Positions 14,844-51,944 are shown, counted from the stretch's first letter. The stretch: DNA of 64,000 nucleotides from a candidate division WOR-3 bacterium UBA5631 (GCA_002421425.1 DIJZ01000020.1:825-64824), one strand, 5' to 3'. Notes: generated by a model from the sequence alone, not told the origin. A program made the numbers and translations.

Positions 14844-17003
14844 TCACTCAACAACTAGAACTTTTACCGACTTATCCAAGTTTTTGCTTTCAATCCTTAA
14901 GAAGTAAATACCACCTGGAACCTGCCTGATATCAAGGGTGAAGCGGCTTCCAGTCCCTACGGTATATCCTCTTACACGCTGCCCAAGGGCATCATAGAGC
15001 GAGAGATTCAACATTTCTTTTACTGGTTCCAGAAAAATCAATTCTATTACCTCTGAATTTGGATTATGGAGTAACTTTATCACTCCAGCTGGATTTCTGT
15101 ATCGCTCTTCGATCCCTATGCCCAAAAACTCGCAAATCTGAATACCAGCTGAATAATCAGCAACAAAAATATAAGAACCTACAGCGTAAACATTCATCGC
15201 GCTCCCAGGCGTATCATAAAAGCCAACCTCATACGGATTTGATGGATCCGATACGTCAATTATTCTAACTCCACCTGCGTAATTTGCAACATAAGCGTAT
15301 GATCCCGAAACGTGCAAACCGAAAGCATAACTTGGGGTCAAACAATATCCAATCTCAACAGGAGCTATAGGATTTGAAACATCAATTATCCGGAAGCCAA
15401 AATATTGATCCGTGATATAAGCATACGAACCGGAGACGCAAACGCTGTAAGTCTCACCAGGTGTGTCATAATACCCCACTTCATAAGGATTTGATGGGTT
15501 TGCAATACTAATGATTCGAAGACCCGAACTACCATCCGCAACGTATGCATAAGAGCCCGAAACATAGACATCGTTTGCAGCGCCAGGGGTATCAAAATAA
15601 CCAACTTCAAAAGGATTAGACGGACTCGTTATATTAATTATACGAAGACCCTCAGTATAATCTGCAACATAAGCGTAAGGGCCAGAAACATAAATATCAT
15701 TGACAATGCCAGGAGTATCATAATATCCAACCTCTTGAGGATTCGAAGGGTTTGATACATCAATAATATGAAGACCTCCGTAGCCTCCCGCGAGATAAGC
15801 AATAGTACCCGACAGGAAAACTCCATATCCGCCGGTAGGAACATAACAACGCCCGACTTCCATTGGACTTGAGGGTGTTGAAATATCAATAACGCGAAGG
15901 CCATACCAATAATCTCCGATGTAAGCATAAGACCCTGAAACACTTATTCCCAAAGCTAAACCGAGGGCACGGTAATAACCTACTTCCTGAGGACTTGAGG
16001 GGCTTGAAATATTTACTATACGAACACCCTCCCAGTCGTCAGCAACGTAAGCATAAGAGCCAAAAACACAAACTCCATCAGCATTACCGGGGGTATTACA
16101 AAAACCAGTTTCAGAAGGATTTGCCGGGTCCGAGATATTAACAACCCTTAAACCCTCCCAGGCATCTGCAACATAAGCATATGAACCTAACACATAAACA
16201 CCACGAGCCACACCAGGAGTATCGTAATACCCAGCCTCCAAGGGATGTGATGGATTTGATATATTTATTATACGAAGTCCAGACCCCCAATCTGCGACAT
16301 AAGCATATGAACCTGAAACAAAAATGCCCCGAGCGTCGCCAGGCGTGTCATAATATCCTGATTCTGAAGGATTTGAAGGATCTGATATATTTATTATTCG
16401 AAGACCCTGAAAAGCATCCGCAACGTAAGCATACGAACCTGATACATAAACACTATAGGCTATACCAGGAGTATCATAATATCCAACCTCTGAAGGATTT
16501 GATATATTCGATATATCAACTACTCTCAGTCCAGAATTTCCGCCTGCAACGTAAGCATACGAACCTGAGACATAAACACCGTAAGCATCTCCAGAAATGA
16601 AGTATGAACCCAATTTAACAGGATCTGTTGAATTCGCTATATTCCATATCTCGATACCACCCTGACCCGCTGCAATGTAAAGCCTTTGAGTTGCTGACTG
16701 ATAAGAAAGCTCATGTACTACTCCCCTTGTGCGAATTTCTGAAATTTTCTGAGGATTTGCTGGGTTCGAAACGTCAAGTACATAGACACCACCACCTGAC
16801 CCACAGAAAACAAGATTTCTCGAAGGGTCAAAACTTACTGCATAAGTAACGCCAAAGGGCCAGTTTCCAATAAATCTTGTATTCAGAGAATCAAAACCTG
16901 CATATGTCCGGGGATCCGATATCTGTTCAGTGCGATAACGAGCTACCTGTGCAAAAAGCACTGAAAAGGGAAGGATTATGATTACTACAACCTTTTTCAG
17001 CAT
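14844..17003 (-). CDS. LVIVD-repeat beta-propeller protein with T9SS C-terminal sorting domain
   Basis: Signal peptide MLKKVVVIIILPFSVLFAQ, with AAGGAGGTGGTG upstream of the ATG at 17001-17003. About 12 tandem ~43 aa repeats (VSGSYAYVAD..GLRIINIS.PSNP.EVGYYDTPG). C-terminus ...GIYFLRIESKNLDKSVKVLVVE is Por-secretion-tail-like. Confidence 0.8.
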   Translation of the reverse strand: MLKKVVVIIILPFSVLFAQVARYRTEQISDPRTYAGFDSLNTRFIGNWPFGVTYAVSFDPSRNLVFCGSGGGVYVLDVSNPANPQKISEIRTRGVVHELSYQSATQRLYIAAGQGGIEIWNIANSTDPVKLGSYFISGDAYGVYVSGSYAYVAGGNSGLRVVDISNISNPSEVGYYDTPGIAYSVYVSGSYAYVADAFQGLRIINISDPSNPSESGYYDTPGDARGIFVSGSYAYVADWGSGLRIINISNPSHPLEAGYYDTPGVARGVYVLGSYAYVADAWEGLRVVNISDPANPSETGFCNTPGNADGVCVFGSYAYVADDWEGVRIVNISSPSSPQEVGYYRALGLALGISVSGSYAYIGDYWYGLRVIDISTPSSPMEVGRCYVPTGGYGVFLSGTIAYLAGGYGGLHIIDVSNPSNPQEVGYYDTPGIVNDIYVSGPYAYVADYTEGLRIINITSPSNPFEVGYFDTPGAANDVYVSGSYAYVADGSSGLRIISIANPSNPYEVGYYDTPGETYSVCVSGSYAYITDQYFGFRIIDVSNPIAPVEIGYCLTPSYAFGLHVSGSYAYVANYAGGVRIIDVSDPSNPYEVGFYDTPGSAMNVYAVGSYIFVADYSAGIQICEFLGIGIEERYRNPAGVIKLLHNPNSEVIELIFLEPVKEMLNLSLYDALGQRVRGYTVGTGSRFTLDIRQVPGGIYFLRIESKNLDKSVKVLVVE
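14950..16700 (-). repeat. Intragenic near-identical tandem coding repeats (~129 nt unit, about 12 copies)
   Basis: Recurrent DNA strings such as gcataagaacc/gcatatgaacc/gcatacgaacc tgaaac, at roughly 130 nt periodicity inside the LVIVD gene. Confidence 0.7.
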
Positions 17004-17625
17004 AATCACCACCTCCTTTACATAGACTTCGTATATAATATAAATTACGATTTTTAGCCCGTCAAGATCCAATATGTGTGACAGAAAGATTATTCACTTC
17101 AGAAGACAAAACACAGCAGGTGTAGTTCAAACGGTTAATCTAAGGTTTTTAGTTCTACCGAGCCAAAGCTGCAAAACAATCCATAAAGTTAATTTAATAG
17201 CAGAACATCGCTCTTCCCGTCCTTCTTCTATTTCGTTCAATTTTCTAAATTTAATGCTTCAAAAAAGCACTTTCAACCCTCCCTAAGGCACTTTTTGACC
17301 AGGCAAACTTACGCGGCGAATGCGACACAGCAATTCCAAAAATTTTAAGCCAACACACTTGACTGCTGAAGAGTATGAATTGGTTTCTGTATTTGAAACA
17401 GAAGAAAAACCCCGTACGAAAAATCTTAAAGACCTCTCGAATATCCATACAATCGACATAATCGGTTCTCAAACTCTAAAATCTTTATTCGATGCATTAC
17501 AGCAAATGCGAATAATCTGGCTTTTATGCCAAGTTTTCGGTATAATAAACACACATTGAAAGAAGCGAGATGAAGGGGCTTTTAGGAAGTGCTGAAGAAA
17601 GCCTCCTAAAATCAAAAGAGAGACC

Positions 17626-32563: not shown

Positions 32564-32983
32564 CTACATCTCATACTGGCTCCTTACCGTTGTAACTCTG
32601 TATTCCCTTTGAATTCCGGTCCTCGCATCAAGCCATCGGATTATTGTTCTGATAGTGCGAGTTCCATCTGCATTTTCTGCAATATTCCACATTGTCGTGA
32701 AAGCGATGTTATCAAGAGTATCAACCACGGAATGGTCTGGGTTGTCAACATCATCAAGATCATTGTTATCTCCGTCATTAGCAAGTTCAGGAGCATCAAA
32801 AGATACTCCCTTCAGAGCTTCAGAATGGCGCTCTGCCAGAAACCGGGCATTTAACATCTGATTCTGGAGATTGTTGAGCCTTATCGTAGCAATGGCCAGA
32901 GGAATCACGCCCATAAGTCCAATTGTGAGTATAGTAAGTGCCACCAATACTTCGATCAATGTGTAACCTTTACTTTTCTTCAT
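32564..32983 (-). CDS. pilV: PilV-like minor pilin
   Basis: MKKSKG|YTLIEVLVALTILTIGLMGV. The internal Met is the preferred start; the ORF track extends to 33028. Confidence 0.6.
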   Translation of the reverse strand: MKKSKGYTLIEVLVALTILTIGLMGVIPLAIATIRLNNLQNQMLNARFLAERHSEALKGVSFDAPELANDGDNNDLDDVDNPDHSVVDTLDNIAFTTMWNIAENADGTRTIRTIIRWLDARTGIQREYRVTTVRSQYEM

Positions 32984-33512
32984 GCCATGCTCCCCTCCAG
33001 GAGTATACCCTGACCTGTCCAAAGGCATTTACTCCGATACACATCAGATTCCTGTTATCGTTGATGTAAATTTCACCCGGCGTCTCACAGAGGCCGAAAA
33101 CGGAAAATACCACCATGTTGTTTTCAGACCCCGTGCCAAACATAATCCCATCGGAGTCAATAGTACCTCCACCTAAACTAGTAGCAGAACCCAATCCGCC
33201 AAGATTCACCCTAGGACTAAAATAATTAGGATAACTGGCGAGGGTAGAATCAAGATTTGGCAAAGGCTTGTTCTGGTCCTCTATTCTAATTGTCACATTT
33301 TTACCATTAAAAATCAACGCTCGCCTGTTGCTGGCAGACATAGCTGTGGTTCTCTCTGTCTCAAGAAGGGCTTTGACCTTGAAGGCCTCATTTCGTAGCC
33401 TGTTTCTTGCAACCCACCGGTTACCTCCCCAGAAGGGAATCGCAATAACGACACTCATAATAAAGATCACAAGCAATATCTCAATGAGAGTCATGCCCTT
33501 CTTGAGCTTCAT
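32970..33512 (-). CDS. fimT: FimT/FimU/GspH-like minor pilin
   Basis: MKLKKG|MTLIEILLVIFIMSVVIAI; 180 aa. Confidence 0.6.
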   Translation of the reverse strand: MKLKKGMTLIEILLVIFIMSVVIAIPFWGGNRWVARNRLRNEAFKVKALLETERTTAMSASNRRALIFNGKNVTIRIEDQNKPLPNLDSTLASYPNYFSPRVNLGGLGSATSLGGGTIDSDGIMFGTGSENNMVVFSVFGLCETPGEIYINDNRNLMCIGVNAFGQVRVYSWRGAWHEEK

Positions 33513-33523
33513 CTTTCACATCC

Positions 33524-36570: not shown

Positions 36571-38187
36571 TTATTTCAGTTTTACATTTAACTCAAAACT
36601 TGCGTACCGCTCCTCCTGACTCCCTGCAACTTCAATAGACAGGAGGCTCACTGAATCTACAATTGCTGATTTCTTGAGATTTGTCATAAATTGTGAAATT
36701 CTCATGTTAGAAAGGGCCGCACCGGAAATATTAAGATAATCCCCGCTTCTCTTCAAAGAAGAAAGCCAGCATCCTGAAGGTAGCACCCTGTTAACCTCAT
36801 CAAGAAGTTGTACGTACCTTGTCCGGCCAATTTGAAGTTCTTTTATCAAATCAATTTTTCTTCTTGCGTCTTCGATCTCTCTTTTGAACCCACTAATTTC
36901 ATCAGCCTTCTTCTGAAGTTCCACCTCTTCAGCCTGAAGAGCCACAATTTGCTTCTTCAGTCCTGAAATTCTTCTTGAAGTGCCTATCGTAAGTCCCAGA
37001 ATTCCAATAACGATGAGTAACCATATAAACAGAGCTCCGACTACATGCGGGAGTATTGAGACCTCTTCTACAGCACCCACCGCTTCCATGCCACCTTCTT
37101 GTGGTATAAGGTTTATCCTGTGTTCTTTTCTGTAAAAGTGCAAAACATCCCCGAGGACTATTGGAAGTAGATGAATATTCTCCTTGAGTCCTTTGACTGG
37201 CTCTTCAACCGCAAACAGAGTCCCGAGATCCAGGAACTTTAGGTCTACTCCGTATTTGTTCTTAACAAAGGTACCAACACCGTAGAGCTGGCTTCCTCCT
37301 CCAGAAAGATAGAAATTGAATTTTGCACCAGCCTCTCCAAGGACAGGAACGAACTTCTCCGGGGAAAGGAACCGGTCGTGTAGGGACTCCATAGTCTCTT
37401 CGAAGGAACTCTTTTCGATATTAGCAGTCGGACCATTTATAGCAACCTCTTCAGCTTCTTCTACCCTGAGATCATAGAACCTCGATAGGTTATCGACATA
37501 GGATTTTATTCCCGAGGGAACTTCGAGCATCTGTTGGATTTGTCCATCTTTAATATGGATCAACAGTGCAACTTCGTACCCCATATGGAAGAACACATTA
37601 TCACCGGGTATGTTCTTAAGCCCAAGAGCTTCTATCACCCTGTACAGAGAGACAAGATCCGTAGTAACCATTACGGGTTCCAGTCCAGAAGCTCTCACGA
37701 TGTCCATTATATCGTAAATAAGGCTTAATTTTGCCGTCCCAACAAGAATATCCACTGACTCGGCAATCTGGCTCATGCCAAGTATTTCATAATCCCTGAC
37801 AATTTCCGTCGGATCAACGTGCAACTCTTCTTTTATCTTCCAGTCCACTGCTTCAGCAAGCTTCTCTTTCTTCTTATAGTAGGGAATCACCATCGCTTTA
37901 GACTTTACCTCTCCGCCGGCAACATTTACAATAACATTCGATACATCGGTACCCATTTTGGCAAAAGCATCCCTGATTTTATCTATTAAGACTTGCCTGT
38001 CAATTATGTCCTTCCCGAGAATGACATCAGGAGGAATTTTTTCCATGGAGAAAGCCCTCAAGATGATTTCTTTCTTGACTTTCTCAAAAAGAGCTAATTT
38101 TATGTACTTTGACCCTATATCTAACACAATCACGGGTCCTCTGGCTTTCCCCTTTAAGCCTTTCGTTACATTACCGATAAAAGCCAT
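36571..38187 (-). CDS. pilMN: PilM-PilN fusion protein (actin-like ATPase-fold PilM, then TM plus PilN periplasmic domain)
   Basis: VIVLDIGSKYIKLALFE (PilM) at the N-terminus. INLIPQEGG, TM ALFIWLLIVIGILGL and a C-terminal PilN-like domain. Confidence 0.75.
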   Translation of the reverse strand: MAFIGNVTKGLKGKARGPVIVLDIGSKYIKLALFEKVKKEIILRAFSMEKIPPDVILGKDIIDRQVLIDKIRDAFAKMGTDVSNVIVNVAGGEVKSKAMVIPYYKKKEKLAEAVDWKIKEELHVDPTEIVRDYEILGMSQIAESVDILVGTAKLSLIYDIMDIVRASGLEPVMVTTDLVSLYRVIEALGLKNIPGDNVFFHMGYEVALLIHIKDGQIQQMLEVPSGIKSYVDNLSRFYDLRVEEAEEVAINGPTANIEKSSFEETMESLHDRFLSPEKFVPVLGEAGAKFNFYLSGGGSQLYGVGTFVKNKYGVDLKFLDLGTLFAVEEPVKGLKENIHLLPIVLGDVLHFYRKEHRINLIPQEGGMEAVGAVEEVSILPHVVGALFIWLLIVIGILGLTIGTSRRISGLKKQIVALQAEEVELQKKADEISGFKREIEDARRKIDLIKELQIGRTRYVQLLDEVNRVLPSGCWLSSLKRSGDYLNISGAALSNMRISQFMTNLKKSAIVDSVSLLSIEVAGSQEERYASFELNVKLK

Positions 38188-38201: not shown

Positions 38202-39449
38202 TTATTTGCTTTCCTCAACGAAAGCATTCAAAACCTTGTTTAATAAAACTTCATCGATCTTTTCCCCTAACCTCTTGTACGTCAAAAGCTCTCTAACCAC
38301 TGTCTCAATCTTTTTCAGATTCAACCCCGGCCTTTTAACTATTTGATCAATTATGCTCACCGGAAGCCCTTCTTCACCCATAAAGTTCTTAACAACTTCT
38401 CTTTTGAGTTCCACTGTAGGCTCCTCAATCCCTATGCCCATAAATCCATTTAGTAACGACTTTATTTTCTTACTGAGAGTAGGCATATCTTTTAAAGGCT
38501 GGGCGGAAGTAATAACCACCTGTTTATCCTGCGAAACAAGTTCAGAAAGAACTGTAAAGAGGGCTTCCTGAGCGAAGTCTTTTCCAACCAGAAAATCAAG
38601 ATCATCAAAAAGAAGAAGGTCAGTGTCGCTCAACATGCCAAGGTACCTCTCCAGCTCCCTTTCAGTCTTAAGCCCTTTCAAAGTCGTTACAAACTTAAAG
38701 GCATCAATGTATATAAAACGCCTTAGCGCTTCATTCTCAAGAATATAGTTGGCAATGGACTGCAAAAGATGTGTTTTGCCCGTTCCATCATGTCCGTAAA
38801 TGAAAACCCTTCTTTCTGCTACCCCTCTGGTCTCTGCAAGGTCTTTACACAATAGAAAAGCATGCCGATTAGATTCACCGGTAACATAATTCTCAAAGAC
38901 TTTATCCTTCGCTATTAGAACTCCAATTTCTCTTCTCACTCTCTCCACACCAAACGGTTCCTGGATTCTCTCCTCTCCTCCTGCTTCGACGTAATATTTT
39001 TCGATGGCTTCCCGGATTTCGCTGATGGTTGAGATAAATGGCCTTATCTTCAAATCAGTTACGTTCTTTATCTCAGCAAGCATTTCTTTGTTAACAGGGT
39101 TTGCCATGGCAACGGCGAGAGACTTGCCCTTCTTTCTTATTGGAATCAAAAGATACTTTCTTGCAACTCTTCCTGGGATATGCTCAACTGCTTCGGGGTC
39201 TATATCAATATCCTTGAGCCTTACATAGTGAAGCATTGGAAAACTATCAAGAATGAACTTTACAAGTTGCTCCTCGTTTAGAAATCCCTTTTCCACTAAA
39301 ATCTCTTCAAGGGTCCCTCCCCTTTCCCATTGCTCAGTAAGGGCTGTTTTTATAGCTTCCTTAGTTATAACTCCGCTCTTTTCCAGCAAATCTATAAAGG
39401 TAACCTTAGTACCGGTTTTCTCATCAGCTTTCACATCTTTCCTTATCAT
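38202..39449 (-). CDS. Fusion of a T2SSE_N/MshEN-like N-terminal domain with a DnaA/Hda-type AAA+ module (no DnaA domains I, II or IV)
   Basis: Residues ~15-150 resemble the GspE/PilB N1 domain with two MshEN-like 24-mer halves (TFIDLLEKSGVITKEAIKTALTEQ and TLEEILVEKGFLNEEQLVKFILDSF). The C-terminal module shows DnaA domain III traits. These are ENYVTGESNRHAF, Walker A GHDGTGKTHLL, Walker B LLLFDDLDFL, sensor-1 VVITSAQ, and box VII/sensor-2 ...NLKKIETVVREL. Confidence 0.7.
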   Translation of the reverse strand: MIRKDVKADEKTGTKVTFIDLLEKSGVITKEAIKTALTEQWERGGTLEEILVEKGFLNEEQLVKFILDSFPMLHYVRLKDIDIDPEAVEHIPGRVARKYLLIPIRKKGKSLAVAMANPVNKEMLAEIKNVTDLKIRPFISTISEIREAIEKYYVEAGGEERIQEPFGVERVRREIGVLIAKDKVFENYVTGESNRHAFLLCKDLAETRGVAERRVFIYGHDGTGKTHLLQSIANYILENEALRRFIYIDAFKFVTTLKGLKTERELERYLGMLSDTDLLLFDDLDFLVGKDFAQEALFTVLSELVSQDKQVVITSAQPLKDMPTLSKKIKSLLNGFMGIGIEEPTVELKREVVKNFMGEEGLPVSIIDQIVKRPGLNLKKIETVVRELLTYKRLGEKIDEVLLNKVLNAFVEESK

Positions 39450-41205: not shown

Positions 41206-43068
41206 TTAATTATACTCAAAATGCTTGTCAGTGTCAAGAAGTAATTCAAACAATCTCCTGAGAAAACAAAAAAAGGCGGGGAATCTATCGCTGAAAACTG
41301 CTACATCTGAAACCAATAAGGAAAGACCAGAGGGAATGAACTTTTCAAAATATTTCTTTCCTTTAACCCTTGATAGATATCCGTATGCACCCAGAGCCTG
41401 CATGTGCCTCTGAATCCTCGTAAAGTTCAACTCTTTATATAAGTCCTCAGAAGAAAGATCTATACCCGATAATTCGGAGCAGTTGAGTATATATGAATTT
41501 ATTGCATCCTCTCTAATCTTGCTGGATACATCTGTGTATGGGTCAAACAGCAGGGATGCCAGGTCATAACTTCTTGGACCCCATCTGAGCCCTATGAAGT
41601 CCGTTACGCCCAGCTCCCCGTTTTGTCTAACCATCAAGTTCTGGCTCTGAAAATCTCTATGGAGAACTACATGCGGAAATTTCGAACATTCCACTGCAAT
41701 AGAGTCAAGTTCCTCCATAACCTCTTCAGGAACTTCCAGGCGCCCGTAGGGAAGTACAAAATTATTGATAAAATGAGCCTGTTCCCAGCGGAAATATTCC
41801 ACGTCAAATACAAAACTGCCGAAATCTTTTGATAAAGAAATAGTGGGACCCAGGGAGTGAAGTTGCGCAAGGATACGTGCGGCCTTTCTGTAATAATCTG
41901 GTGCGTTTTTCTGATTCGGAGGATATTTTAAAAATGTATACAAAGTGATATCTCCGAAGTCTTCCATCCAGATCAGGTTTCTTAAAACATCCACGTCGAG
42001 TATTTCCGGCACAGGAACCCCACAAAAACGAAGAAATTCTGACGCCTTAAGGTGCTTATTGAAATTTTCAACATCATCACCGTAATCGCACAAAATTATT
42101 CTCTTTCTACCCTGGAGTACTCTGAAAAATTTTCTGTCTGACCCACCATGTCCAATGGAATATTTGTTCCCGTGGCCACCCATAGCCAGAACTTCATCAA
42201 AGGAAAGTTCTCCAGACGGTGATAGGATCATGTTCTCGTAGCGCCCCACTCGTAGGCTGCTTCCTGGTAAGATTATTGCATTTCTGAAAAACGCCCTGCC
42301 CTCAATACGACACTCCCCTTCCATTATTAGAAATCCATCAAACTTAATATCAGGAAACTCCGGCTTACGCAAGTTCTGGAACAGGTTCTCACCCCTCTTC
42401 TTCAGCAAATAAAACACTGTGCGGGCATAACCTTCCGGAGTACCGATGTCAGACCAGAATACATCCCCAATATCGTATACACTCACTTTAAGACCTCTAT
42501 TGAGGGCGTCAAGCCAGATGGTTTTTGCATCGAGGAATTCGACAGTGAATTTCTCAAAAACATCTTTTTTGTAAACTGCTATCCCCGCAAATCCAGTTAA
42601 GCCTGTGTGTTCGTCAATCCCGGTAAACCTTTCATCCGAAACTACGAGGTTCCTCTTAGGAACGTTCCTGCTCACTGCGAGAGTAATATTAGACTCCGTT
42701 CTTAAGAAGAATTCGATTATCTCTCTAAGATCAGTTTCACAGTACACGTCTCCATTATGAACAAGAATTACGTTACTTCTAAAAAGACTGGACATATTGA
42801 CCAGCGCACCTCCAGTCCCGAGAATTTCCCGTTCCTCAATAAAAGTTAACTCATTTCCAGTAGAACAAAGGTGTTCTCGAATTACATTACCCATATAATG
42901 GAGGTTAACCAGAACCTGAGTGGGATTCAACTCTTCAATTTTTGAGTGAATCTTTTCAAAACAGGTCTCTCCGAGGATGGGAAGTAGTACTTTTGGGATC
43001 GAATAAGTAATTGGTCTGAGTCTCTCTCCCAGCCCTGCAGAAAGAATCACGGCATCAAAATTAGTCAT
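41206..43068 (-). CDS. Bifunctional MurNAc-1-P uridylyltransferase / anomeric MurNAc(GlcNAc) kinase (MurU-AmgK fusion)
   Basis: N-terminus AVILSAGLGERLRPIT is sugar-nucleotidyltransferase GxGxRL. The C-terminal half is an APH-like kinase (VLHRDFQSQNLMV, DFIGL). The start is taken at the internal MTNFDAVIL Met (43066-68). Confidence 0.65.
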   Translation of the reverse strand: MTNFDAVILSAGLGERLRPITYSIPKVLLPILGETCFEKIHSKIEELNPTQVLVNLHYMGNVIREHLCSTGNELTFIEEREILGTGGALVNMSSLFRSNVILVHNGDVYCETDLREIIEFFLRTESNITLAVSRNVPKRNLVVSDERFTGIDEHTGLTGFAGIAVYKKDVFEKFTVEFLDAKTIWLDALNRGLKVSVYDIGDVFWSDIGTPEGYARTVFYLLKKRGENLFQNLRKPEFPDIKFDGFLIMEGECRIEGRAFFRNAIILPGSSLRVGRYENMILSPSGELSFDEVLAMGGHGNKYSIGHGGSDRKFFRVLQGRKRIILCDYGDDVENFNKHLKASEFLRFCGVPVPEILDVDVLRNLIWMEDFGDITLYTFLKYPPNQKNAPDYYRKAARILAQLHSLGPTISLSKDFGSFVFDVEYFRWEQAHFINNFVLPYGRLEVPEEVMEELDSIAVECSKFPHVVLHRDFQSQNLMVRQNGELGVTDFIGLRWGPRSYDLASLLFDPYTDVSSKIREDAINSYILNCSELSGIDLSSEDLYKELNFTRIQRHMQALGAYGYLSRVKGKKYFEKFIPSGLSLLVSDVAVFSDRFPAFFCFLRRLFELLLDTDKHFEYN

Positions 43069-44233
43069 AAAGCAGAAAATCCTTACGTATGTTTTCGTTG
43101 AAACTTTCGCTTTGGGCTTGCCACCAGGCTTCCATCTCGTCCAGCTTTTCACGCCTCTCAAGTTTCAGTCGCAACTCATCGGTTCCCACAAGGATATCGA
43201 AGGGAAGCTTCACGTACTCGTACTCATAAGGGGGCTGCTTCCAGCGAAACTCTTGAGGGTAAAGCTCCATCATCGCCTTTATCACGGCAACCCCAATTTT
43301 AAAGGGCTTCACTTTTTCTTTGCTTAAGATGTGAATCTGCACTCCACCACACTTTTCGCCAGCAAATTTATTGAAAGTTGGGATAAAATAAAGGGGGCGA
43401 AACGTTGTGCCATCAAGCCCAAGGGTACTGAGATAGTCTGCAAGAGAAAAAGGCTCTATAAATGGTGCACCAAAGATTTCAAAGGGTCTCGTAGTACCCC
43501 TTCCCTCACTGATATTCGTGGCCTCAAGAAGACACATACCTGGGTACAAAATTGCCGTCTTCTCTGAAGGCATATTGGGCGATGGATTCACCCAATCAAG
43601 CCCTGTATCCTGCCAGAAATGTCTTCTACTCCACCCCTCCATTTTTATTACTCTCAATTCTAAGTCAGAAAGGTATTTGTGCTTGAAATAAGATGCAATT
43701 TCGCCAATAGTCATTCCATGTCTAACAGGCAGCGGCTTAAGGCCAACAAAAGAGGCAAATTCTTCTTTCAAAACCGGACCTTCAACAAGAGAACCTGAAA
43801 TTGGGTTTGGACGGTCTAGCACTACAATAAATTTGCCGCATTCCATGGCAGCTTCCATGGTGAGGTATAAAGACCAGATATAAGTATAATATCTTGACCC
43901 AACGTCCTGAAGGTCGACCACCACTCCATCAACCTCCAGAAGGACTTCAAGGGGCGGCTTCCTTGCCTTCCCGTAAAGGCTGTACACAGGAATGCCCGTC
44001 CTGAGATCACGATAACCTTCCCACTCTATCATATTGTCTTGCGTTTCACCAAAGAGGCCGTGCTGGGGAGCGAAAACGGATTTAACACTAACTTTTTCAA
44101 ACCCCAAAAACGCATCCAGAGTGCTCTTCAGATTACCAAGGTAAGAGGCAGAGTGAATGAGGAGTGCAACTCTCACTCCCTCAAATTCCGAAGGCCATTC
44201 TTTTTGAAACAGGTCCACACCCAGTTTAGTCAC
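43061..44233 (-). CDS. namZ: DUF1343 family exo-beta-N-acetylmuramidase (NamZ-like)
   Basis: 390 aa; the call is based on family-level resemblance to DUF1343. 8 nt overlap with the upstream gene. Confidence 0.55.
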   Translation of the reverse strand: MTKLGVDLFQKEWPSEFEGVRVALLIHSASYLGNLKSTLDAFLGFEKVSVKSVFAPQHGLFGETQDNMIEWEGYRDLRTGIPVYSLYGKARKPPLEVLLEVDGVVVDLQDVGSRYYTYIWSLYLTMEAAMECGKFIVVLDRPNPISGSLVEGPVLKEEFASFVGLKPLPVRHGMTIGEIASYFKHKYLSDLELRVIKMEGWSRRHFWQDTGLDWVNPSPNMPSEKTAILYPGMCLLEATNISEGRGTTRPFEIFGAPFIEPFSLADYLSTLGLDGTTFRPLYFIPTFNKFAGEKCGGVQIHILSKEKVKPFKIGVAVIKAMMELYPQEFRWKQPPYEYEYVKLPFDILVGTDELRLKLERREKLDEMEAWWQAQSESFNENIRKDFLLYD

Positions 44234-44903
44234 AGAGAGACCTCTCCTTGAAAAAAGAACAAATGGCTTTTAAAGGGCAGCCAGGGCAGTCTGGGTCTCT
44301 TTTTGTGCAGTGAGTCTTCCCCAGGCGCACAAGTAGCGCATGATACTCATTGAACTTCATAACATCGTGATCCAGATTTTCCATAAAAAAACGCTGGACT
44401 TCCTGATAAGAAAGGTCTGAACCTTCGAAAATCCCCAACCTGGAAAAAATTCTCCGCGTATAAGCATCTACAACGAAAATTGGCTTACCAAAGGCGTAAA
44501 GAGCTATGGAATCCGCCGTTTCAGGCCCAATTCCATCAATTTCAAGAAGCCTGCCCCTCAGCTCCTGGATGCCCATCCTTTTAAACCTTTCAATACCACC
44601 CGAATCGACCAGCGCCTTTATCAATTCTTTCAGCCTCGCAGCCTTTATCCGGTAAAAACCGCTGGGCCTTATCAGTTTTGCAAGTTCTTCAACGGAAATT
44701 TTATGCAACGAATCCAGGTCCAGAAGACCTGCTTCCTTTAGGTTCCATATTGCCCTTTCAACGTTTCTCCACGATGTGTTCTGAGTAAGGACAGCTCCTA
44801 CGATAATTTCAAGTTCCCCGTCCCCAGGCCACCAGTGTTGAGGTCCGAAGCGAGAATAAAGAAGTGAAAAGACCTTCTCAAGAATCTCCCTCATCTTCTT
44901 CAT
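44226..44903 (-). CDS. HhH-GPD superfamily DNA glycosylase with [4Fe-4S] FCL motif (EndoIII/MagIII-like)
   Basis: LTQNTSWRNVERA and CTKRDPDCPGCPLKAIC (C-x6-C-x2-C-x5-C). Start uncertain within 44894-44951. Confidence 0.6.
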   Translation of the reverse strand: MKKMREILEKVFSLLYSRFGPQHWWPGDGELEIIVGAVLTQNTSWRNVERAIWNLKEAGLLDLDSLHKISVEELAKLIRPSGFYRIKAARLKELIKALVDSGGIERFKRMGIQELRGRLLEIDGIGPETADSIALYAFGKPIFVVDAYTRRIFSRLGIFEGSDLSYQEVQRFFMENLDHDVMKFNEYHALLVRLGKTHCTKRDPDCPGCPLKAICSFFKERSLCD

Positions 44904-45807
44904 AATCGAGGAGACTTTCACCTTCCACAATATCGTAAAGCCCCGATACAAGTTCGCCCAAAAAACCCATAAGGAAGAAAATAAGACCAGAAATGAGCAA
45001 AAACATTACCAGGTAAAGCAATGGCCTATAGCCAAAATGCTTGAAAATTCTCAGATACAAAGCGACAACTCCTGCAAGTACACCAAGAACAAGCGATGCA
45101 AGACCGAGTCCACCGAAGAAGAACATCGGTTTTCTTCTAAAAGTAATTAAGAATTTCACAGATATAAGATCAAAGACACCCACCAGTACCCTTCCCACAC
45201 CTCTGTACTTACTTACACCATGCATCCTTGGCCTGAGAATAACTCTCTCTTCTCCTACCCTGAAGCCCAGTTCCTTTGCCCATGGAATAATATAGCGGTG
45301 CCAATCTTTACGAAGTGGAAGGAGTTCGAGCACTTCGCGCCTCATAACCTTTATGCTATTCATATCGTGGATTTTGATGCCGAACAACATTCGCACAAGG
45401 AAGTTATATATACTGGATACCACTTTCTTCTCATATTTACCAAGTTTCCAACCTGCCACGAGATCTAATCCATCGGTCTCAATCCTGGAAACCATCCTTT
45501 CCACGTCCTCGAGCGTGAATTGGAGGTCGGCAGGGAAAAAGGCCACAAGGGGCGCCTCAGAGTGCTTCAGGGCAGTTTTAAGTGCGTGAGTAACGCCAAG
45601 ATTTCTTCTGTGGCGGAAATACTTGACATTTCTATATTCCGGCACCAGGCGCTTCAACTCTTCATAAGTTCCATCGGTAGATCCGTCGTCTACGATAATC
45701 ATTTCCCAATCAACATGCCGCCTTTCAACAAAGCCCTTGAAATAGTCAAGTAAGGGCCTGATGTTGTCCCGTTCGTCCTTTGCAGGAACCAGAATTGAAA
45801 GTCTCAT
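44878..45807 (-). CDS. GT2 polyprenyl-phosphate glycosyltransferase (GtrB/DPM1-like) with 2 C-terminal TM helices
   Basis: LSILVPAKDERDNI...IIVDDGSTDGT, and a C-terminal double TM helix. Confidence 0.75.
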   Translation of the reverse strand: MRLSILVPAKDERDNIRPLLDYFKGFVERRHVDWEMIIVDDGSTDGTYEELKRLVPEYRNVKYFRHRRNLGVTHALKTALKHSEAPLVAFFPADLQFTLEDVERMVSRIETDGLDLVAGWKLGKYEKKVVSSIYNFLVRMLFGIKIHDMNSIKVMRREVLELLPLRKDWHRYIIPWAKELGFRVGEERVILRPRMHGVSKYRGVGRVLVGVFDLISVKFLITFRRKPMFFFGGLGLASLVLGVLAGVVALYLRIFKHFGYRPLLYLVMFLLISGLIFFLMGFLGELVSGLYDIVEGESLLDYEEDEGDS

Positions 45808-45871
45808 GCTTCAATTATACATTCAACGGAAAGCCAATGCAACGAAAATTTCAGGTTTTTTCGATGTCATC

Positions 45872-46786
45872 CTATTTTTCCCTGAGTCGTCCTTTTTCAA
45901 AAAAGGCGAAAGCAAAAAGGAATAATATAAAATCACCAAGCACAAGAGCTACTCTTGTTAGGATTGAAAAAGCAGATGCAACCTCTCCGCTGTATGTACC
46001 TCTGAGGAGAGTCATAAGAATTGACTCCCTGACGCCAAGGCCGGCAGGTGCAATAATGGTCAGATATCCAAGAATCCAGGAGATAGGGTAAGTTGTTACT
46101 GAATCCAGAAGGCTTACCCGAATAGAGGACCCCTGAATCATTACCCAGAAGGAGACGCCGGTTAGTATCCAGAGCACGAAGTATAAAACAAAAACAACAA
46201 GGTTTCTCCTTAGGTTGAGGTTTATTCTGGATAGATCCATTTCCACTTTTCTCAGACGCGCGTACAATTTTAAGAAGAACTTAATAAAAGAAGGGTGCTG
46301 AAGGGTAAGAAGTACAAGAAAAAGCAAAGAAGCATATAAAAGCCAAAGCTGAGATACATTGCCGCGCAAAAAAAATCTAATGAAAAACACCATAATAGCT
46401 GCTGCACTGGAAATTATCACTTCAAGGAAAACGGTCGTTAGTGTAATTTCGGGTTTTATTTTCTTGGTTAGAGCAACTCTCCCGACGAACTGCCACACTT
46501 TACCAGGGATGTACTTTCCTACATTAGAGTAAATCCAGGAGATAATTGAAGTCTTCAGAGGAAGTTCATACCCAAATCCCTGGACTATGTACCTCCACAC
46601 AAAGGGATAGGCAGATATTATGAAAGCCAGCATAAGTAAGCCTGCGCAAAGACACAGAGGTTTCAATGTTAGGAAAGTATCGCTAAAGGCTTTAGCATTC
46701 CTGACAAGAGGTGAAGCAACATAGTAGAAAAGAAACAGAACTAAAAGAACCTGTGCTACTCTAAGTAGAATTACCTTTGCGCTCAT
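45872..46786 (-). CDS. Polytopic membrane protein, flippase-like (UPF0104/LPG-synthase TM-like)
   Basis: 8-9 predicted TM helices; no soluble domain. Confidence 0.4.
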   Translation of the reverse strand: MSAKVILLRVAQVLLVLFLFYYVASPLVRNAKAFSDTFLTLKPLCLCAGLLMLAFIISAYPFVWRYIVQGFGYELPLKTSIISWIYSNVGKYIPGKVWQFVGRVALTKKIKPEITLTTVFLEVIISSAAAIMVFFIRFFLRGNVSQLWLLYASLLFLVLLTLQHPSFIKFFLKLYARLRKVEMDLSRINLNLRRNLVVFVLYFVLWILTGVSFWVMIQGSSIRVSLLDSVTTYPISWILGYLTIIAPAGLGVRESILMTLLRGTYSGEVASAFSILTRVALVLGDFILFLFAFAFFEKGRLREK

Positions 46787-49188
46787 CAGGGTTTTCTTAT
46801 AACCAGTACCAGGGCGAACAGAGATATCAAAAATCCTGCAGCAGATAGCGCAAATCCAACTTTGTGGAAAATTGAATCAAACTTCATCAAAATTGTGTGT
46901 TCTCCTGCAGGGCAATATACGGCTCTGAAGGCGTAGTTTGCAGTGTACACTTCCGTTTGCTTGCCATCAATGTAGCATTTCCAGCCAGGATGATAGTTTT
47001 CAGAAAACACGACAAATCCCGCTTTGGGAAGGTCTACTTTCACGTCAATTCTATTTGCATCATATCTTGTAAGTTCAATTACTGGACTTCCCGCTTGCGT
47101 AGCCGCTGAAACGGGAATTCGGGGATCTTTTTCCAGAAAAACGAAACTTTTCAGAGAATCTGAGGGTAGCACCTTCAACATCGCCAGGATTGAATCCGGA
47201 GGAAGAACTCTGTACGCCTCAGCAAAGTACACCCTCCCAAGATTACTGGAGTTTTCATAAAGGGCAAATTGCCCCAGGGGCGATACCAGTCTGAAATTCC
47301 CCAGATACTGGATCCACTCCCTTATAGCCTTTCTTGTAGCCTCATCGTACCTTAAAGTATCGATTATCTGGAAGTTATAAGCAATTACATATTTAACATC
47401 CAGGAGATTTAGCATCTCCGGGTGTGAAATTAGGTTCTGCGGGTTGAACATCACGCTCTGCCCAGCCCCAATAAATTCCTGATACCTCCTTGGTGGAGAA
47501 CTTGTATACCCTCCAATAGAGCTAACTCTATGTATTATTAGTGTCCCATCGTTGGCCCTCGGGTACATAAGGGGAAAGATTCTGAAAATACCTGCTTCGT
47601 TCTTAATTGTTTTTATCACAGGATCTTCTCCATACATTTCATCCATGCTGCGTCCCGTATCAACAATGAAATTTCTATTCACAAGATACAGGTCAAGGAA
47701 AACGAGCAAGGATAGCCCTATGGATAAAGAAAGTGCCTCTCTTCTTTTCTTTGAAATAACCACAAGAATCGCATATGCAAGTCCTGCAATGACCAATGAA
47801 AGTAAATAGGATCCGAGAAGTTTCCCGTACCCTTCACCAAGAATGAATATTTTGTCCTTCACATTGCCTGCATCCTTTGCTCTTTGAAGCATTCCAGAAA
47901 ACATACTTATTATTCCACTCTTGAACATCAATAGAATAAGAAATAGTACAGAAAATGCACCCAGGAGATAGAGACCTTCTTTCACGAGCTTTTTTAATTC
48001 TAACTCACCCCTCAAAACACCTTTTATACAAATAGAAGCCAGTATGACCGATATATAATTAAAGATAAAAAACATTAAACTTGGAGCTCTAAACCTTTTT
48101 ACCATCGGAAGAACATAATAGAAAATTTTATAGAAAGGCGTAAAACCTCCCCACACGTAAAGGAGCACAAATACGGCATAAATTGTCAAAAATCTTACCA
48201 GCTTATCTTTCTTCATTTTCGTTACTATCGTCGTCAGAGCGAGGAAGAGTGTAATTATTCCCATATACTCTGTGTGCAGCTTGAAATAGTTTCTTCCCCA
48301 GTATTCATCAAGAATTCCTGAAAAACGGGGCGTAATTAAATTGAGAATTTCCTCGGGAGGCATTGACCAGCTCACCGCATATTCATATCCCCTCTCAGCA
48401 CCCCTCGCAGTGAAAGGCAAATTTTCAAAGACAGGGAGCAGGTAAAAACTGTACATTAGTGCCGCAACTAACCCTCCAAGAACTGAATATAGGGCATAAA
48501 TATAGAATTTTTTGCTTTTCAGGTTGTTTCCCTGAGTGATGTTGTAAAAAACGAAGAAGCATATCAAAAACAAGACTCCATAGTAAGTCATTTGAGGATG
48601 TCCGTTCAAAAACGAGAATCCTACCGCCGCACCCATTAACAAAAAATACCCCAGCTTGCCTGAGTCAATACCTTTAACAAGGAGAGCAAGATATAAAGGC
48701 AGGAGTGCCATGCTGGTCAGACGGCCCAGATGTCCAGCATAAGTCGTGGAGACAAGAACGCCAGAAAATCCATACATTACTCCACCAATTAAGGCTGTAA
48801 GGTCATCTTTCAGGAATTCTCTCAGAAAAAAGTAAGTAGAAATCCCCGCAATGGTTATCATAAATATAAAACCAAGAACGTGCGATATGTGCACTGGAAA
48901 TACAAAAGTACTCAAGAACCTGAGAGTCAAGATTTCAGGGAAAAAAGCTCCAATTGTAGGCATCCCGGAGAAGACATAAATATTCCAGAAAGGAAGTGAA
49001 TGATTCGCTTTAATGTAATCCCTCATAAAAACCCAGTTTGCGTATCCTCCATTCAGCCAGTCAGTACCCATTAGATTTTTTGATGGTGAGAGAAAAGCAA
49101 CATACAACACAAGTGAAAGGGTTAAATAGGCAAGAAATACTACGTACGGCTTCAACTTGAAAACCTTCTCCTGAACAGTTCGTGCCAT
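46786..49188 (-). CDS. YfhO-like GT-C fold membrane glycosyltransferase
   Basis: 800 aa with many N-terminal TM helices and a large C-terminal extracytoplasmic domain, ending in a C-terminal TM helix. Size and architecture match YfhO. Confidence 0.5.
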   Translation of the reverse strand: MARTVQEKVFKLKPYVVFLAYLTLSLVLYVAFLSPSKNLMGTDWLNGGYANWVFMRDYIKANHSLPFWNIYVFSGMPTIGAFFPEILTLRFLSTFVFPVHISHVLGFIFMITIAGISTYFFLREFLKDDLTALIGGVMYGFSGVLVSTTYAGHLGRLTSMALLPLYLALLVKGIDSGKLGYFLLMGAAVGFSFLNGHPQMTYYGVLFLICFFVFYNITQGNNLKSKKFYIYALYSVLGGLVAALMYSFYLLPVFENLPFTARGAERGYEYAVSWSMPPEEILNLITPRFSGILDEYWGRNYFKLHTEYMGIITLFLALTTIVTKMKKDKLVRFLTIYAVFVLLYVWGGFTPFYKIFYYVLPMVKRFRAPSLMFFIFNYISVILASICIKGVLRGELELKKLVKEGLYLLGAFSVLFLILLMFKSGIISMFSGMLQRAKDAGNVKDKIFILGEGYGKLLGSYLLSLVIAGLAYAILVVISKKRREALSLSIGLSLLVFLDLYLVNRNFIVDTGRSMDEMYGEDPVIKTIKNEAGIFRIFPLMYPRANDGTLIIHRVSSIGGYTSSPPRRYQEFIGAGQSVMFNPQNLISHPEMLNLLDVKYVIAYNFQIIDTLRYDEATRKAIREWIQYLGNFRLVSPLGQFALYENSSNLGRVYFAEAYRVLPPDSILAMLKVLPSDSLKSFVFLEKDPRIPVSAATQAGSPVIELTRYDANRIDVKVDLPKAGFVVFSENYHPGWKCYIDGKQTEVYTANYAFRAVYCPAGEHTILMKFDSIFHKVGFALSAAGFLISLFALVLVIRKP

Positions 49189-49206: not shown

Positions 49207-49235
49207 ATAATAAAGATGGTGCTTTGACTATTCAA
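49207..49235 (-). promoter_or_regulatory. Sigma70-like promoter for the minus-strand envelope/pilus mega-operon
   Basis: Minus strand: TTGAAT (rc of 49230-35), 17 nt spacer, TATTAT (rc of 49207-12), GAGGAGG, then the ATG at 49188. Confidence 0.4.
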
Positions 49236-50618: not shown

Positions 50619-51944
50619 ATGAGGAAAAGAGTAATTATAATGGGCGCTGCCGGAAGAGATTTTCACAACTTTAACGTATTTTTCAGAGACAATGACGAAT
50701 ACGAAGTCGTGGCTTTCACTGCAACTCAAATCCCGGACATTGCAGGCAGAAAGTATCCTGCAGAACTTGCAGGGAAGCTCTACCCAGAAGGTATTCCCAT
50801 TTACCATGAGGACGACCTTGATAATCTCATTAAGGAAAACAAAGTTGACTTCGTCGTATTTTCTTACTCCGACGTATCCCACGAATATGTAATGAACAGA
50901 GCTTCCAAAGCACTGGCAGCCGGAGCCAACTTCATGCTACTCGGCCCTGGATCCACGATGGTGAAATCTGTAAAACCTGTTATTTCTGTGTGTGCCGTAA
51001 GAACAGGTGCAGGGAAGAGTCAGACCACAAGAAGAGTAGCAGAAATCCTCAGAAAACTTGGCAAGAAAACCGTGGTGGTTCGGCACCCGATGCCTTACGG
51101 AGACCTTACAAAACAGGTGGTTCAGAGGTTCGCAAGTCTTGAAGATCTGGACAAACACCACTGTACCATTGAAGAAAGAGAAGAATACGAACCCCATATT
51201 GACCGTGGAAATGTAGTCTATGCGGGTGTGGATTATGAAAAGATCTTAAGACAGGCAGAGCAGGAGGCTGATGTGGTTCTGTGGGATGGAGGTAATAACG
51301 ACTTTCCGTTCTTCAAAACTGACCTCCACATTGTTGTCGCAGATCCGCACAGACCAGGACATGAGGTTACATACCATCCAGGAGAAACGAATTTGCGGAT
51401 GGCTGATATCATTATAATAAATAAGGTAGACACAGCCTACCCTGAAGACATTCAAATGGTTCGAGAGAATGCAAGATCTGCCAACCCTAAAGCGATAATC
51501 ATTGATGCGGCATCTCCTATATACGTTGAAAACCATGAATCCATTAAAGGGAAAAAGGTGCTCGTGATCGAAGATGGACCCACATTGACCCATGGCGAGA
51601 TGGCTTACGGAGCTGGCTATGTTGCGGCGGAAAAATATGGAGCCGCAGAAATTATTGATCCAAGACCTTACGCTGTGGGATCGATAAAGAAAACTTATCA
51701 AAAATTCACCCAGCTTGAGATGATCCTGCCTGCTATGGGATACTCTCCAAAACAACTCAGTGAACTTGAAGAAACCATTAACTCAGTACCTGCAGATCTG
51801 GTAATTGTTGCCACTCCAATTAACCTTGGAAAGATCCTCAAGATTAATAAACCTTACGTGCGAGTGAAATATGAACTTCAGGAAATTGGAAAGCCCGATC
51901 TTGAGGACATTATCAAGGAATTTTTTGCTACCAGGGAGAAATAA
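50619..51944 (+). CDS. P-loop NTPase domain protein, tentatively cyclic 2,3-diphosphoglycerate synthetase-like
   Basis: GAAGRDFHNFN N-terminus and Walker A CAVRTGAGKSQTT. 441 aa. The family assignment is from memory and is not verified. Confidence 0.3.
   Translation: MRKRVIIMGAAGRDFHNFNVFFRDNDEYEVVAFTATQIPDIAGRKYPAELAGKLYPEGIPIYHEDDLDNLIKENKVDFVVFSYSDVSHEYVMNRASKALAAGANFMLLGPGSTMVKSVKPVISVCAVRTGAGKSQTTRRVAEILRKLGKKTVVVRHPMPYGDLTKQVVQRFASLEDLDKHHCTIEEREEYEPHIDRGNVVYAGVDYEKILRQAEQEADVVLWDGGNNDFPFFKTDLHIVVADPHRPGHEVTYHPGETNLRMADIIIINKVDTAYPEDIQMVRENARSANPKAIIIDAASPIYVENHESIKGKKVLVIEDGPTLTHGEMAYGAGYVAAEKYGAAEIIDPRPYAVGSIKKTYQKFTQLEMILPAMGYSPKQLSELEETINSVPADLVIVATPINLGKILKINKPYVRVKYELQEIGKPDLEDIIKEFFATREK

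Follow-up and report, generated by a model that had tools for sequence, protein, structure and literature searches.

What does a cluster of three membrane-associated sugar-transfer genes do in a diderm bacterium, and does it belong to the type IV pilus genes beside it? The question is raised by positions 44878-49188 of a 64,000-nucleotide stretch of DNA from the candidate division WOR-3 bacterium UBA5631 (GCA_002421425.1 DIJZ01000020.1:825-64824; this whole stretch is hereafter the window). The initial annotation had described a polyprenyl-phosphate sugar synthase of glycosyltransferase family 2 (GT2), a flippase-like protein and a YfhO-like enzyme of the GT-C glycosyltransferase class, and had taken the three genes to head an envelope-pilus operon, with pilins as the leading candidate target. 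Three co-directional open reading frames (ORFs) were recovered on the minus strand, with limits identical to those it had given:

49188..46786, minus strand: YfhO-family GT-C protein, 800 aa (Pfam PF09586, AlphaFold2 (AF2) model, Foldseek, conserved residues)
46786..45872, minus strand: PF03706/UPF0104/PplT-type polytopic protein with the MprF flippase-domain fold, 304 aa (Pfam matches of homologs, AF2 and Foldseek, motifs)
45807..44878, minus strand: GT2 polyprenyl-phosphate glycosyltransferase-like protein of the GtrB/ArnC/DPMS type, 309 aa (PF00535, alignment to ArnC and GtrB, motifs)

The co-location of a polyprenyl-phosphate-sugar-synthase-type GT2, a flippase candidate and a GT-C protein, also seen in the related locus L004, leads us to lean towards regarding the locus as a three-component-type extracytoplasmic glycosylation module. 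Conserved at its core are YfhO and a partner of flippase type, in most cases UPF0104 and in some a Wzx-like protein; the sugar-activating enzymes vary. The diderm context using a type IX secretion system (T9SS), as assumed in the initial annotation, was confirmed by a PilQ secretin and a protein with the T9SS sorting domain Por_Secre_tail, both encoded in the window. A placement in candidate division WOR-3 / Hydrothermia agreed with the source names of close homologs and with identical contigs in one JGI (3300002220) and one ENA (ERZ27315067) metagenome. For comparison, one genome per GTDB species was scanned for YfhO loci, and the best 80 of at least 578 confirmed species loci (L004-L083) formed the main synteny set, 56 of which had enough sequence on both sides of the YfhO gene (full-flank loci). 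Further loci, among them L084-L089, were compared in addition, and the proteins of the window and their profiles served as queries. L004 is a relative at 71% identity, and L084 is an ortholog locus at 63% identity.

The 800-aa protein was well described as a YfhO-like GT-C enzyme. YfhO (PF09586) was its sole Pfam match, at 87.2 bits versus a cut-off of 28.5, and its relatives carry the YfhO family annotation. The predicted topology comprises about 13 N-terminal transmembrane (TM) helices, a periplasmic beta-rich domain at about residues 508-772 and a C-terminal TM helix. AF2 models of this and the 304-aa protein were built from homolog alignments, and for the 800-aa model (pLDDT 88.6) the 35 best Foldseek matches in the PDB were all GT-C enzymes (STT3, AftD, ArnT, PglB, AglB, AftA, EmbA/B, DPY19, and PMT). 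The protein is not a transporter, and no Pfam match to another GT-C family such as ArnT/PMT was obtained. No YfhO-family structure was detectable in PDB sequence searches with the single sequence or a 16-sequence profile, and no NCBIfam model matched the protein. Across 120 homologs, residues R262, E280, R367, D522, and R536 were invariant and D43 was 98% conserved. The latter lies in the first loop after TM1 (residues 14-33), which the Lys- and Arg-rich N-terminus places on the periplasmic side. D43 and the invariant Arg, Glu, and Asp residues match the usual GT-C active-site layout, a putative catalytic assignment drawn from their conservation and position.

The 304-aa protein had no Pfam match even at E ≤ 10, but homologs at 60-66% identity carry PF03706 (LPG_synthase_TM, UPF0104, 'flippase-like domain'), which was matched by 17 of 18 aligned relatives, including those 56-64% identical. 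Its membership in PF03706 is therefore one of transitive homology, and the LPG_synthase_TM profile that the initial annotation had suggested as a check matches the relatives but not the protein itself. The structural comparison agreed with this placement: the six top PDB matches of the AF2 model (pLDDT 88.5) were all MprF membrane domains (Foldseek probability 1.00, TMq 0.59-0.67; best 7duw, TMq 0.67), below which only noise was found. In addition, the motifs GKYxPG and PxGxGxRE were invariant. Sequence searches of the PDB with the single sequence and an 18-sequence profile gave no match, nor did any NCBIfam model match the protein. The description as a flippase-like polytopic protein thus stood as to the type of family, but the family is that of MprF and UPF0104 and not the GtrA/GtcA family of the systems to which the locus had been likened. 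Within PF03706, lipid translocation activity has been shown only for MprF, and for YbhN, GpgF, and the C-terminal domain of AglD it is a prediction.

The 309-aa protein matches PF00535 (Glycos_transf_2), and its residues 2-295 align to residues 9-303 of ArnC (9bhc, 8vxh) and 27-322 of GtrB (5eke), a span that covers the two C-terminal TM helices (about 234-252 and 263-281), in line with the earlier assignment to a polyprenyl-phosphate-type GT2 with a double TM helix. It contains the motifs DDGS, PADLQ, HDMNS, and R..G.SKY. Residue roles were mapped from two studies of related enzymes (PMC4728340; bioRxiv 10.1101/2025.01.29.634835). In the segment 91-PADLQF-96, the metal-binding residues D93 and Q95 are retained, whereas Pro91 replaces the first Asp of the DADLQ motif, which corresponds to D94 in GtrB, D100 in ArnC, and D89 in DPMS. 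The catalytic DXD motif is accordingly present in its metal-binding part and non-canonical in its first position. Of the outcomes by which the initial annotation would have been refuted, most were thus not observed. DDGS is conserved, and all 14 aligned relatives share R194..SKY and D148 of HDMNS, the equivalent of GtrB D157, for which mutagenesis has been reported (PMC4728340). In the ArnC work, metal binding is ascribed to the second Asp and the Gln; the first Asp, which takes no part in it, is proposed to act as catalytic base in ArnC, GtrB, and DPMS, and the D89A substitution lowered the activity of PfDPMS (bioRxiv 10.1101/2025.01.29.634835). The same P-A-D variant occurred in L004, L027, L066, L071, L074, L075, L078, and L085, which belong to WOR-3, Zixibacteria, and Gemmatimonadota, near YfhO genes. 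Since it is kept across several phyla, PADLQ is a conserved variant and not decay, and its interpretation as the mark of a dead enzyme was rejected, the other active-site residues being intact. The variant also bears on the catalytic-base role proposed for the first Asp in polyprenyl-phosphate glycosyltransferases. All NCBIfam matches of the GT2 were far below their cut-offs, and therefore no sugar specificity could be assigned.

The initial annotation had implied that a YfhO module would be surprising in a diderm, a view not borne out by its distribution. An exhaustive HMMER search of 1.84 billion cluster representatives yielded 38,450 YfhO relatives at E ≤ 0.001 and 1,156 at E ≤ 1e-30, and homologs were abundant in many diderm phyla: the named relatives belonged to WOR-3, Hydrothermia, Cloacimonadota, Edwardsbacteria, Zixibacteria, and Gemmatimonadota, to which the best 80 species loci added TA06, Ignavibacteria, Stahlbacteria, and Desulfuromonadaceae. 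YfhO has also been described as largely conserved across Bacteroidota in a preprint (bioRxiv 10.64898/2026.07.27.740950).

The partner of YfhO was recurrent across these lineages. A UPF0104 gene lay directly adjacent to YfhO on the same strand in 37 of the 56 full-flank loci (66%), a pairing that spans six or more phyla and both gene orders, and within 10 kb, not adjacent, in seven more. In four others its place was taken by a convergent, Pfam-confirmed Wzx-like Polysacc_synt gene abutting YfhO, and the remaining eight had neither partner. Most lineages showed the order UPF0104-YfhO; the order YfhO-UPF0104 was found only in the window, L004, and L084. The enzymes that might supply activated sugars were less constant. 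A full-length GtrB-type GT2 (41-78% identity) stood directly beside the module in L004, L053, L066, and L071, two genes upstream of YfhO in L085 (GT2-GT4-YfhO), and within 10 kb of the module in about ten more loci, and it was absent from the otherwise collinear L084, in which YfhO and UPF0104 are present. Among other frequent same-strand neighbours, genes of glycosyltransferase family 4 (GT4) accounted for 24 of 79 upstream genes, S-adenosylmethionine-dependent methyltransferases for 17 of 79, and further GT2s for 17 of 80 downstream genes. The families often found beside YfhO in the species loci did not include GtrA (GtrA_DPMS_TM).

Some variations of this arrangement were recorded as well. 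At about 36-45% identity there is a YfhO subclade (L008, L009, L011, L014, L073, L085, and L086) in which the convergent Wzx-like gene replaces UPF0104, often with a GT4 directly upstream and a type I phosphodiesterase gene (PF01663) nearby. L089, which has a distant UPF0104 homolog, shows the order GT2-GT2-GT4-UPF0104-YfhO-GT2-GT2-methyltransferase. In a Bifidobacterium (L088), a distant UPF0104 occurs as GT2-GT4-UPF0104 beside a 720-aa protein, and in Leptospira (L087), a methyltransferase-UPF0104 pair lies beside a GT4, a GT2, a GtrA-methyltransferase fusion, and a 760-aa protein; neither of these two large polytopic proteins matched the YfhO profile.

The gene junctions in the window set the pair apart from the GT2. 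The YfhO stop codon and the UPF0104 start codon share one base (TGATG), and a further signal was read directly from the sequence between UPF0104 and the GT2, a site that the promoter scan tool did not list:

45814..45842, minus strand: promoter-like site TTGCAT-17-TATAAT, with its end 6 nt ahead of the GT2 start codon

The corresponding site in L004 reads TTGATT-17-TATAAT. The GT2 may thus be transcribed on its own, possibly from a leaderless mRNA. This site, and the fact that L084 has no GT2, suggest either that the gene was inserted and is expressed separately or that L084 has lost it. These two features would also suit the explanation that the three genes are mere neighbours without a shared pathway, e.g., a general phospholipid translocase, as has been proposed for UPF0104 proteins, next to a GT2 serving another pathway. 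We consider this very unlikely as a whole, given that the overlapping frames and the recurrent adjacency of YfhO and UPF0104, in at least six phyla and in both orders, are inexplicable without selection for co-expression.

Taken as one pathway, the module would work in three steps, each of which we infer from homology, fold, and gene association. First, by homology to GtrB, ArnC, and DPMS, the GT2 would load polyprenyl (undecaprenyl) phosphate with a single sugar, taken from a nucleotide sugar, at the cytoplasmic face. Second, the UPF0104 protein would move the lipid-linked intermediate, most simply the polyprenyl-phosphate-sugar donor, to the periplasmic leaflet; this step is suggested by fold, synteny, and the gene-swap pattern. 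Third, as its family and fold indicate, the YfhO GT-C protein would transfer the sugar at the periplasmic face to an acceptor that could be Ser/Thr of a protein, a lipoglycan or lipopolysaccharide (LPS)-type glycan, or another envelope polymer. YfhO and UPF0104 would form the conserved, translationally coupled core, and the GT2 a variable add-on with its own promoter-like site. The flippase role follows from the MprF-domain fold, the strong adjacency to YfhO, and the Wzx-type protein in the same position in a YfhO subclade, since the exchange of UPF0104 for a Wzx-type family at one position is what such a role predicts. Archaea offer a parallel: in AglD, a GT2 of the dolichyl-phosphate-sugar-synthase type is fused to a UPF0104 domain, and archaeal UPF0104 genes neighbour genes for AglD-like glycosyltransferases and PMT/STT3-like GT-C proteins, a clustering on which Makarova and colleagues based their prediction of a glycosylation flippase (PMC5898192).

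Several points weigh against this scheme. The substrates experimentally tied to PF03706 domains are glycerolipids only (lysyl- and alanyl-phosphatidylglycerol (Lys-PG and Ala-PG); glucosaminyl-phosphatidylglycerol (GlcN-PG) has been proposed). The flippases of the characterised three-component systems are GtrA, Wzx, SMR, or MATE proteins (PMC8035078, PMC11127046), from all of which the 304-aa candidate differs in family, and no bacterial three-component system characterised so far employs PF03706. The GT2 lacks the proposed catalytic base, and since L084 has no GT2, the trio is not a fixed unit. Moreover, in 13 of the 37 loci with an adjacent pair, the gene directly upstream of UPF0104-YfhO is a GT4 and not a GT2, which fits other lipid-linked substrates.

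The glycerolipid substrates and the frequent GT4 genes lead to a serious alternative in which UPF0104 flips not the donor but the acceptor, a glycerolipid or glycolipid made in the cytoplasm (e.g., the product of a GT4), which YfhO would then decorate or extend with the polyprenyl-phosphate-linked sugar of the GT2, giving a membrane-anchored lipoglycan in parallel with the glycosylation of lipoteichoic acid (LTA) and the assembly of mycobacterial phosphatidylinositol mannosides, lipomannan, and lipoarabinomannan (PIM/LM/LAM). Besides the frequent upstream GT4, this would agree with the gene orders in L089 and the Bifidobacterium, with the glycerolipid links of PF03706 (MprF with Lys-PG; GpgF, encoded together with a GT4 in the gpgSDF operon, with GlcN-PG), and with the action of Firmicute YfhO enzymes on lipid-anchored LTA (PMC5836110, PMC8035078). 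However, no GT4 is present in this cluster or in its orthologs in L004 and L084, the AglD-type fusions of GT2 and UPF0104 favour the flipping of polyprenyl-phosphate sugars, and replacement by a Wzx-type protein fits polyprenyl-linked rather than glycerolipid substrates, so that we hold an acceptor flippase to be rather unlikely.

A more specific proposal concerns the acceptor. YfhO could be an O-glycosyltransferase or O-oligosaccharyltransferase (O-OTase) acting on periplasmic, outer-membrane, or T9SS-secreted proteins, either by adding a monosaccharide to Ser/Thr-rich regions, as PgtC2 and PgfM1 do, or by transferring en bloc a flipped lipid-linked glycan, as predicted for Bacteroidota. The YfhO-family enzymes PgtC2 and PgfM1 modify, with GtrB and PgfS, Ser/Thr-rich membrane-associated proteins (bioRxiv 10.1101/2024.05.05.592596), and PgfS was the top NCBIfam match of the GT2, though far below the cut-off. 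A 2026 preprint predicts that YfhO is the missing O-OTase of general glycosylation in Bacteroidota (bioRxiv 10.64898/2026.07.27.740950); WOR-3 has a T9SS like Bacteroidota, with a T9SS-tailed protein encoded in the window, and the assembly of a lipid-linked oligosaccharide would suit the GT4 and Wzx genes that neighbour related loci. On the other side, the Bacteroidota assignment is itself a prediction only, no acceptor protein or sequon was identified, and the pilin-like proteins of the window lack Ser/Thr-rich tails. Protein O-glycosylation by this locus is accordingly considered unlikely.

The comparison with CsbB/YfhO and GtrABC drawn in the initial annotation is sound for the three-component logic, and each known system departs from the present locus in some part. 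The CsbB/GtcA/YfhO systems of teichoic acids in Bacillus, Staphylococcus, and Listeria have the same membrane-anchored GtrB-type GT2 and YfhO GT-C protein and the same logic, by which a C55-phosphate-linked sugar is made inside, flipped, and transferred outside (PMC5836110, PMC8035078), a logic presumed also for the present locus. Their flippase, however, is the small GtrA-family protein GtcA encoded elsewhere, whereas here it would be an 8-helix MprF-type PF03706 protein coupled to YfhO, and the present host, a diderm, is not known to have teichoic acids. The proteobacterial GtrABC and ArnC/ArnEF/ArnT systems share the full-length GT2 alignment and the three-component scheme with a periplasmic GT-C enzyme, but use a Gtr-type or ArnT (PMT_2) GT-C enzyme, GtrA or SMR flippases, and a GT2 with DADLQ instead of YfhO, PF03706, and PADLQ. 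In streptococci, GtrB/PgtC2 and PgfS/PgfM1 likewise combine a GtrB-type GT2 with a YfhO GT-C protein to add single sugars outside the membrane (bioRxiv 10.1101/2024.05.05.592596); their acceptors, in contrast, are Ser/Thr-rich disordered regions of membrane proteins in monoderms, and no UPF0104 partner has been described. The archaeal AglD and arCOG00899 neighbourhoods contain the same three protein classes (GT2, UPF0104 as predicted flippase, and GT-C) in predicted glycosylation pathways (PMC5898192), though these are dolichol-based, serve the N-glycosylation of S-layer proteins and flagellins, and have a GT-C protein of another family, whereas the present genes are bacterial, unfused, and linked to YfhO. 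The MprF flippase domain, Escherichia coli YbhN/PplT, and Pseudomonas aeruginosa GpgF share the fold and family of the 304-aa protein but are tied to glycerophospholipids (Lys-PG, a cardiolipin context, and GlcN-PG, respectively), work with other synthase classes, and are not linked to any GT-C enzyme.

The triad of protein classes as such has therefore already been predicted for archaea, and COG0392 has already been named a predicted flippase. The locus in the window is itself a fairly ordinary envelope glycosylation cluster, and the part worth following is the pairing of YfhO and UPF0104 across phyla. The flippase step is the least understood part of three-component glycosylation: GtrA, Wzx, SMR, and MATE proteins are the only ones to which it has been ascribed, mostly without direct assays. 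The widespread pairing offers a concrete candidate for this step; it also suggests a function for the stand-alone UPF0104/PplT proteins, whose role is debated. It is conceivable, if doubtful, that in many diderm phyla (WOR-3, Zixibacteria, Gemmatimonadota, Ignavibacteria, TA06, and some Desulfuromonadaceae) PF03706/PplT proteins are the dedicated flippases of the lipid-linked sugars used by YfhO-type GT-C pathways, and that the pair forms the core of a general O-glycosylation of envelope proteins in the lineage related to the Fibrobacteres-Chlorobi-Bacteroidetes (FCB) group. If true, three-component glycosylation would gain a further flippase class and stand-alone bacterial UPF0104 proteins their first defined non-phospholipid role, and the O-glycosylation core would resemble the Bacteroidota system whose transferase is still missing. 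Given that YfhO has been proposed as the O-oligosaccharyltransferase of Bacteroidota, its conserved partners in related diderm phyla could help to define that pathway.

As for the second half of the question, the genes downstream of the cluster include a pilus-side string in which a gene for a tetratricopeptide repeat (TPR) protein is followed by MshEN/DnaA, PilMN, PilO, PilQ, a minor pilin, and PilY1. Two further promoter-like sites bear on the relation between the two sides:

49207..49235, minus strand: promoter-like site TTGAAT-17-TATTAT upstream of YfhO (promoter scan; block conserved in L004 and L084)
41209..41237, minus strand: perfect sigma-70 site TTGACA-17-TATAAT (12/12), 8 nt upstream of the TPR start (scan; conserved in L004 and L084)

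The first belongs to a pair of divergent, back-to-back promoter-like sites, for YfhO and an aminotransferase gene, that is conserved in L004 and L084. The second matches the consensus at all 12 positions, for which a simple count gives about 0.005 occurrences by chance in a 14-kb stretch, and it is likely to mark the start of the pilus-side unit and the downstream limit of the glycosylation-side unit. The scan for terminators found no convincing one between the MurU/AmgK and TPR genes, and read-through from upstream is possible because no terminator is evident.

On this evidence, the cluster is a neighbour of the pilus genes and probably not the head of their operon, contrary to the initial annotation. 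A dedicated type IV pilin glycosylation system, co-transcribed with the downstream pilus genes, would draw on the co-direction and tight spacing of the genes from YfhO to PilM/N/O/Q, the minor pilins, and PilY1, an order kept in L004 and L084. Yet the perfect promoter-like site stands directly before the TPR gene, and the genes between it and the GT2, for an HhH-GPD DNA glycosylase, NamZ, and a MurU/AmgK fusion, are unrelated to pili. The collinearity with L004 and L084 reaches equally into unrelated upstream genes (aminotransferase, RlmN, and CoaE) and thus represents local chromosome conservation within one family, and among 76 more distant YfhO loci only one (L052) had PilMN or MshEN homologs within 10 kb of YfhO. 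Nor was a pilin target apparent: a pilin motif scan of the window returned only two type IV pilin-like N-termini (32564-33028 and 32970-33515) and no major pilin, and both proteins are minor-pilin-like, without Ser/Thr-rich tails, and encoded about 12 kb from the cluster behind a separate conserved promoter-like site. In the TfpW and PilO/PglL systems, the enzyme is encoded beside the major pilin gene, whereas the window has no major pilin gene and the 800-aa protein is of neither the TfpW nor the Wzy_C (PglL/PilO) type. A dedicated pilin glycosylation system is hence regarded as extremely unlikely.

The promoter-like sites of the TPR gene and the GT2 end 8 and 6 nt, respectively, before the start codons, without a Shine-Dalgarno sequence, a spacing that suggests leaderless or near-leaderless mRNAs for both genes. 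In L084, the TPR promoter lies farther upstream and a Shine-Dalgarno-like AAGGTGA precedes the start. The 584-aa TPR protein has a long Glu/Lys/Pro-rich middle part and precedes a 415-aa fusion (38202-39449, minus strand) of an MshEN domain of the c-di-GMP-binding type with a DnaA-like AAA+ ATPase domain, which is directly upstream of a PilM-PilN fusion (36571-38187, minus strand). L004 and L084 share this arrangement of TPR, MshEN-DnaA, and PilMN, and L052 does so in part.

In the intervening region (41206-44233, minus strand), NamZ is a 390-aa exo-beta-N-acetylmuramidase without an obvious signal peptide, the frame of which overlaps the next one. The latter encodes a 620-aa fusion of a MurU-like nucleotidyltransferase and an AmgK-like sugar kinase, in the same arrangement in L004 and L084. 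Judged from their domains, NamZ and the fusion would constitute a compact salvage route from N-acetylmuramic acid (MurNAc) to UDP-MurNAc.

Elsewhere in the window, the Por_Secre_tail protein (14844-17072, minus strand; 742 aa) combines eleven LVIVD repeats with the C-terminal sorting domain. It is likely a T9SS cargo and would be a possible glycosylation substrate if the YfhO system targets secreted proteins. On the other side of the cluster, a 441-aa ORF without a Pfam match (50619-51944, plus strand) lies between the genes for a class III aminotransferase and a metallo-beta-lactamase-fold protein and is kept at the same position in L001 and L084.

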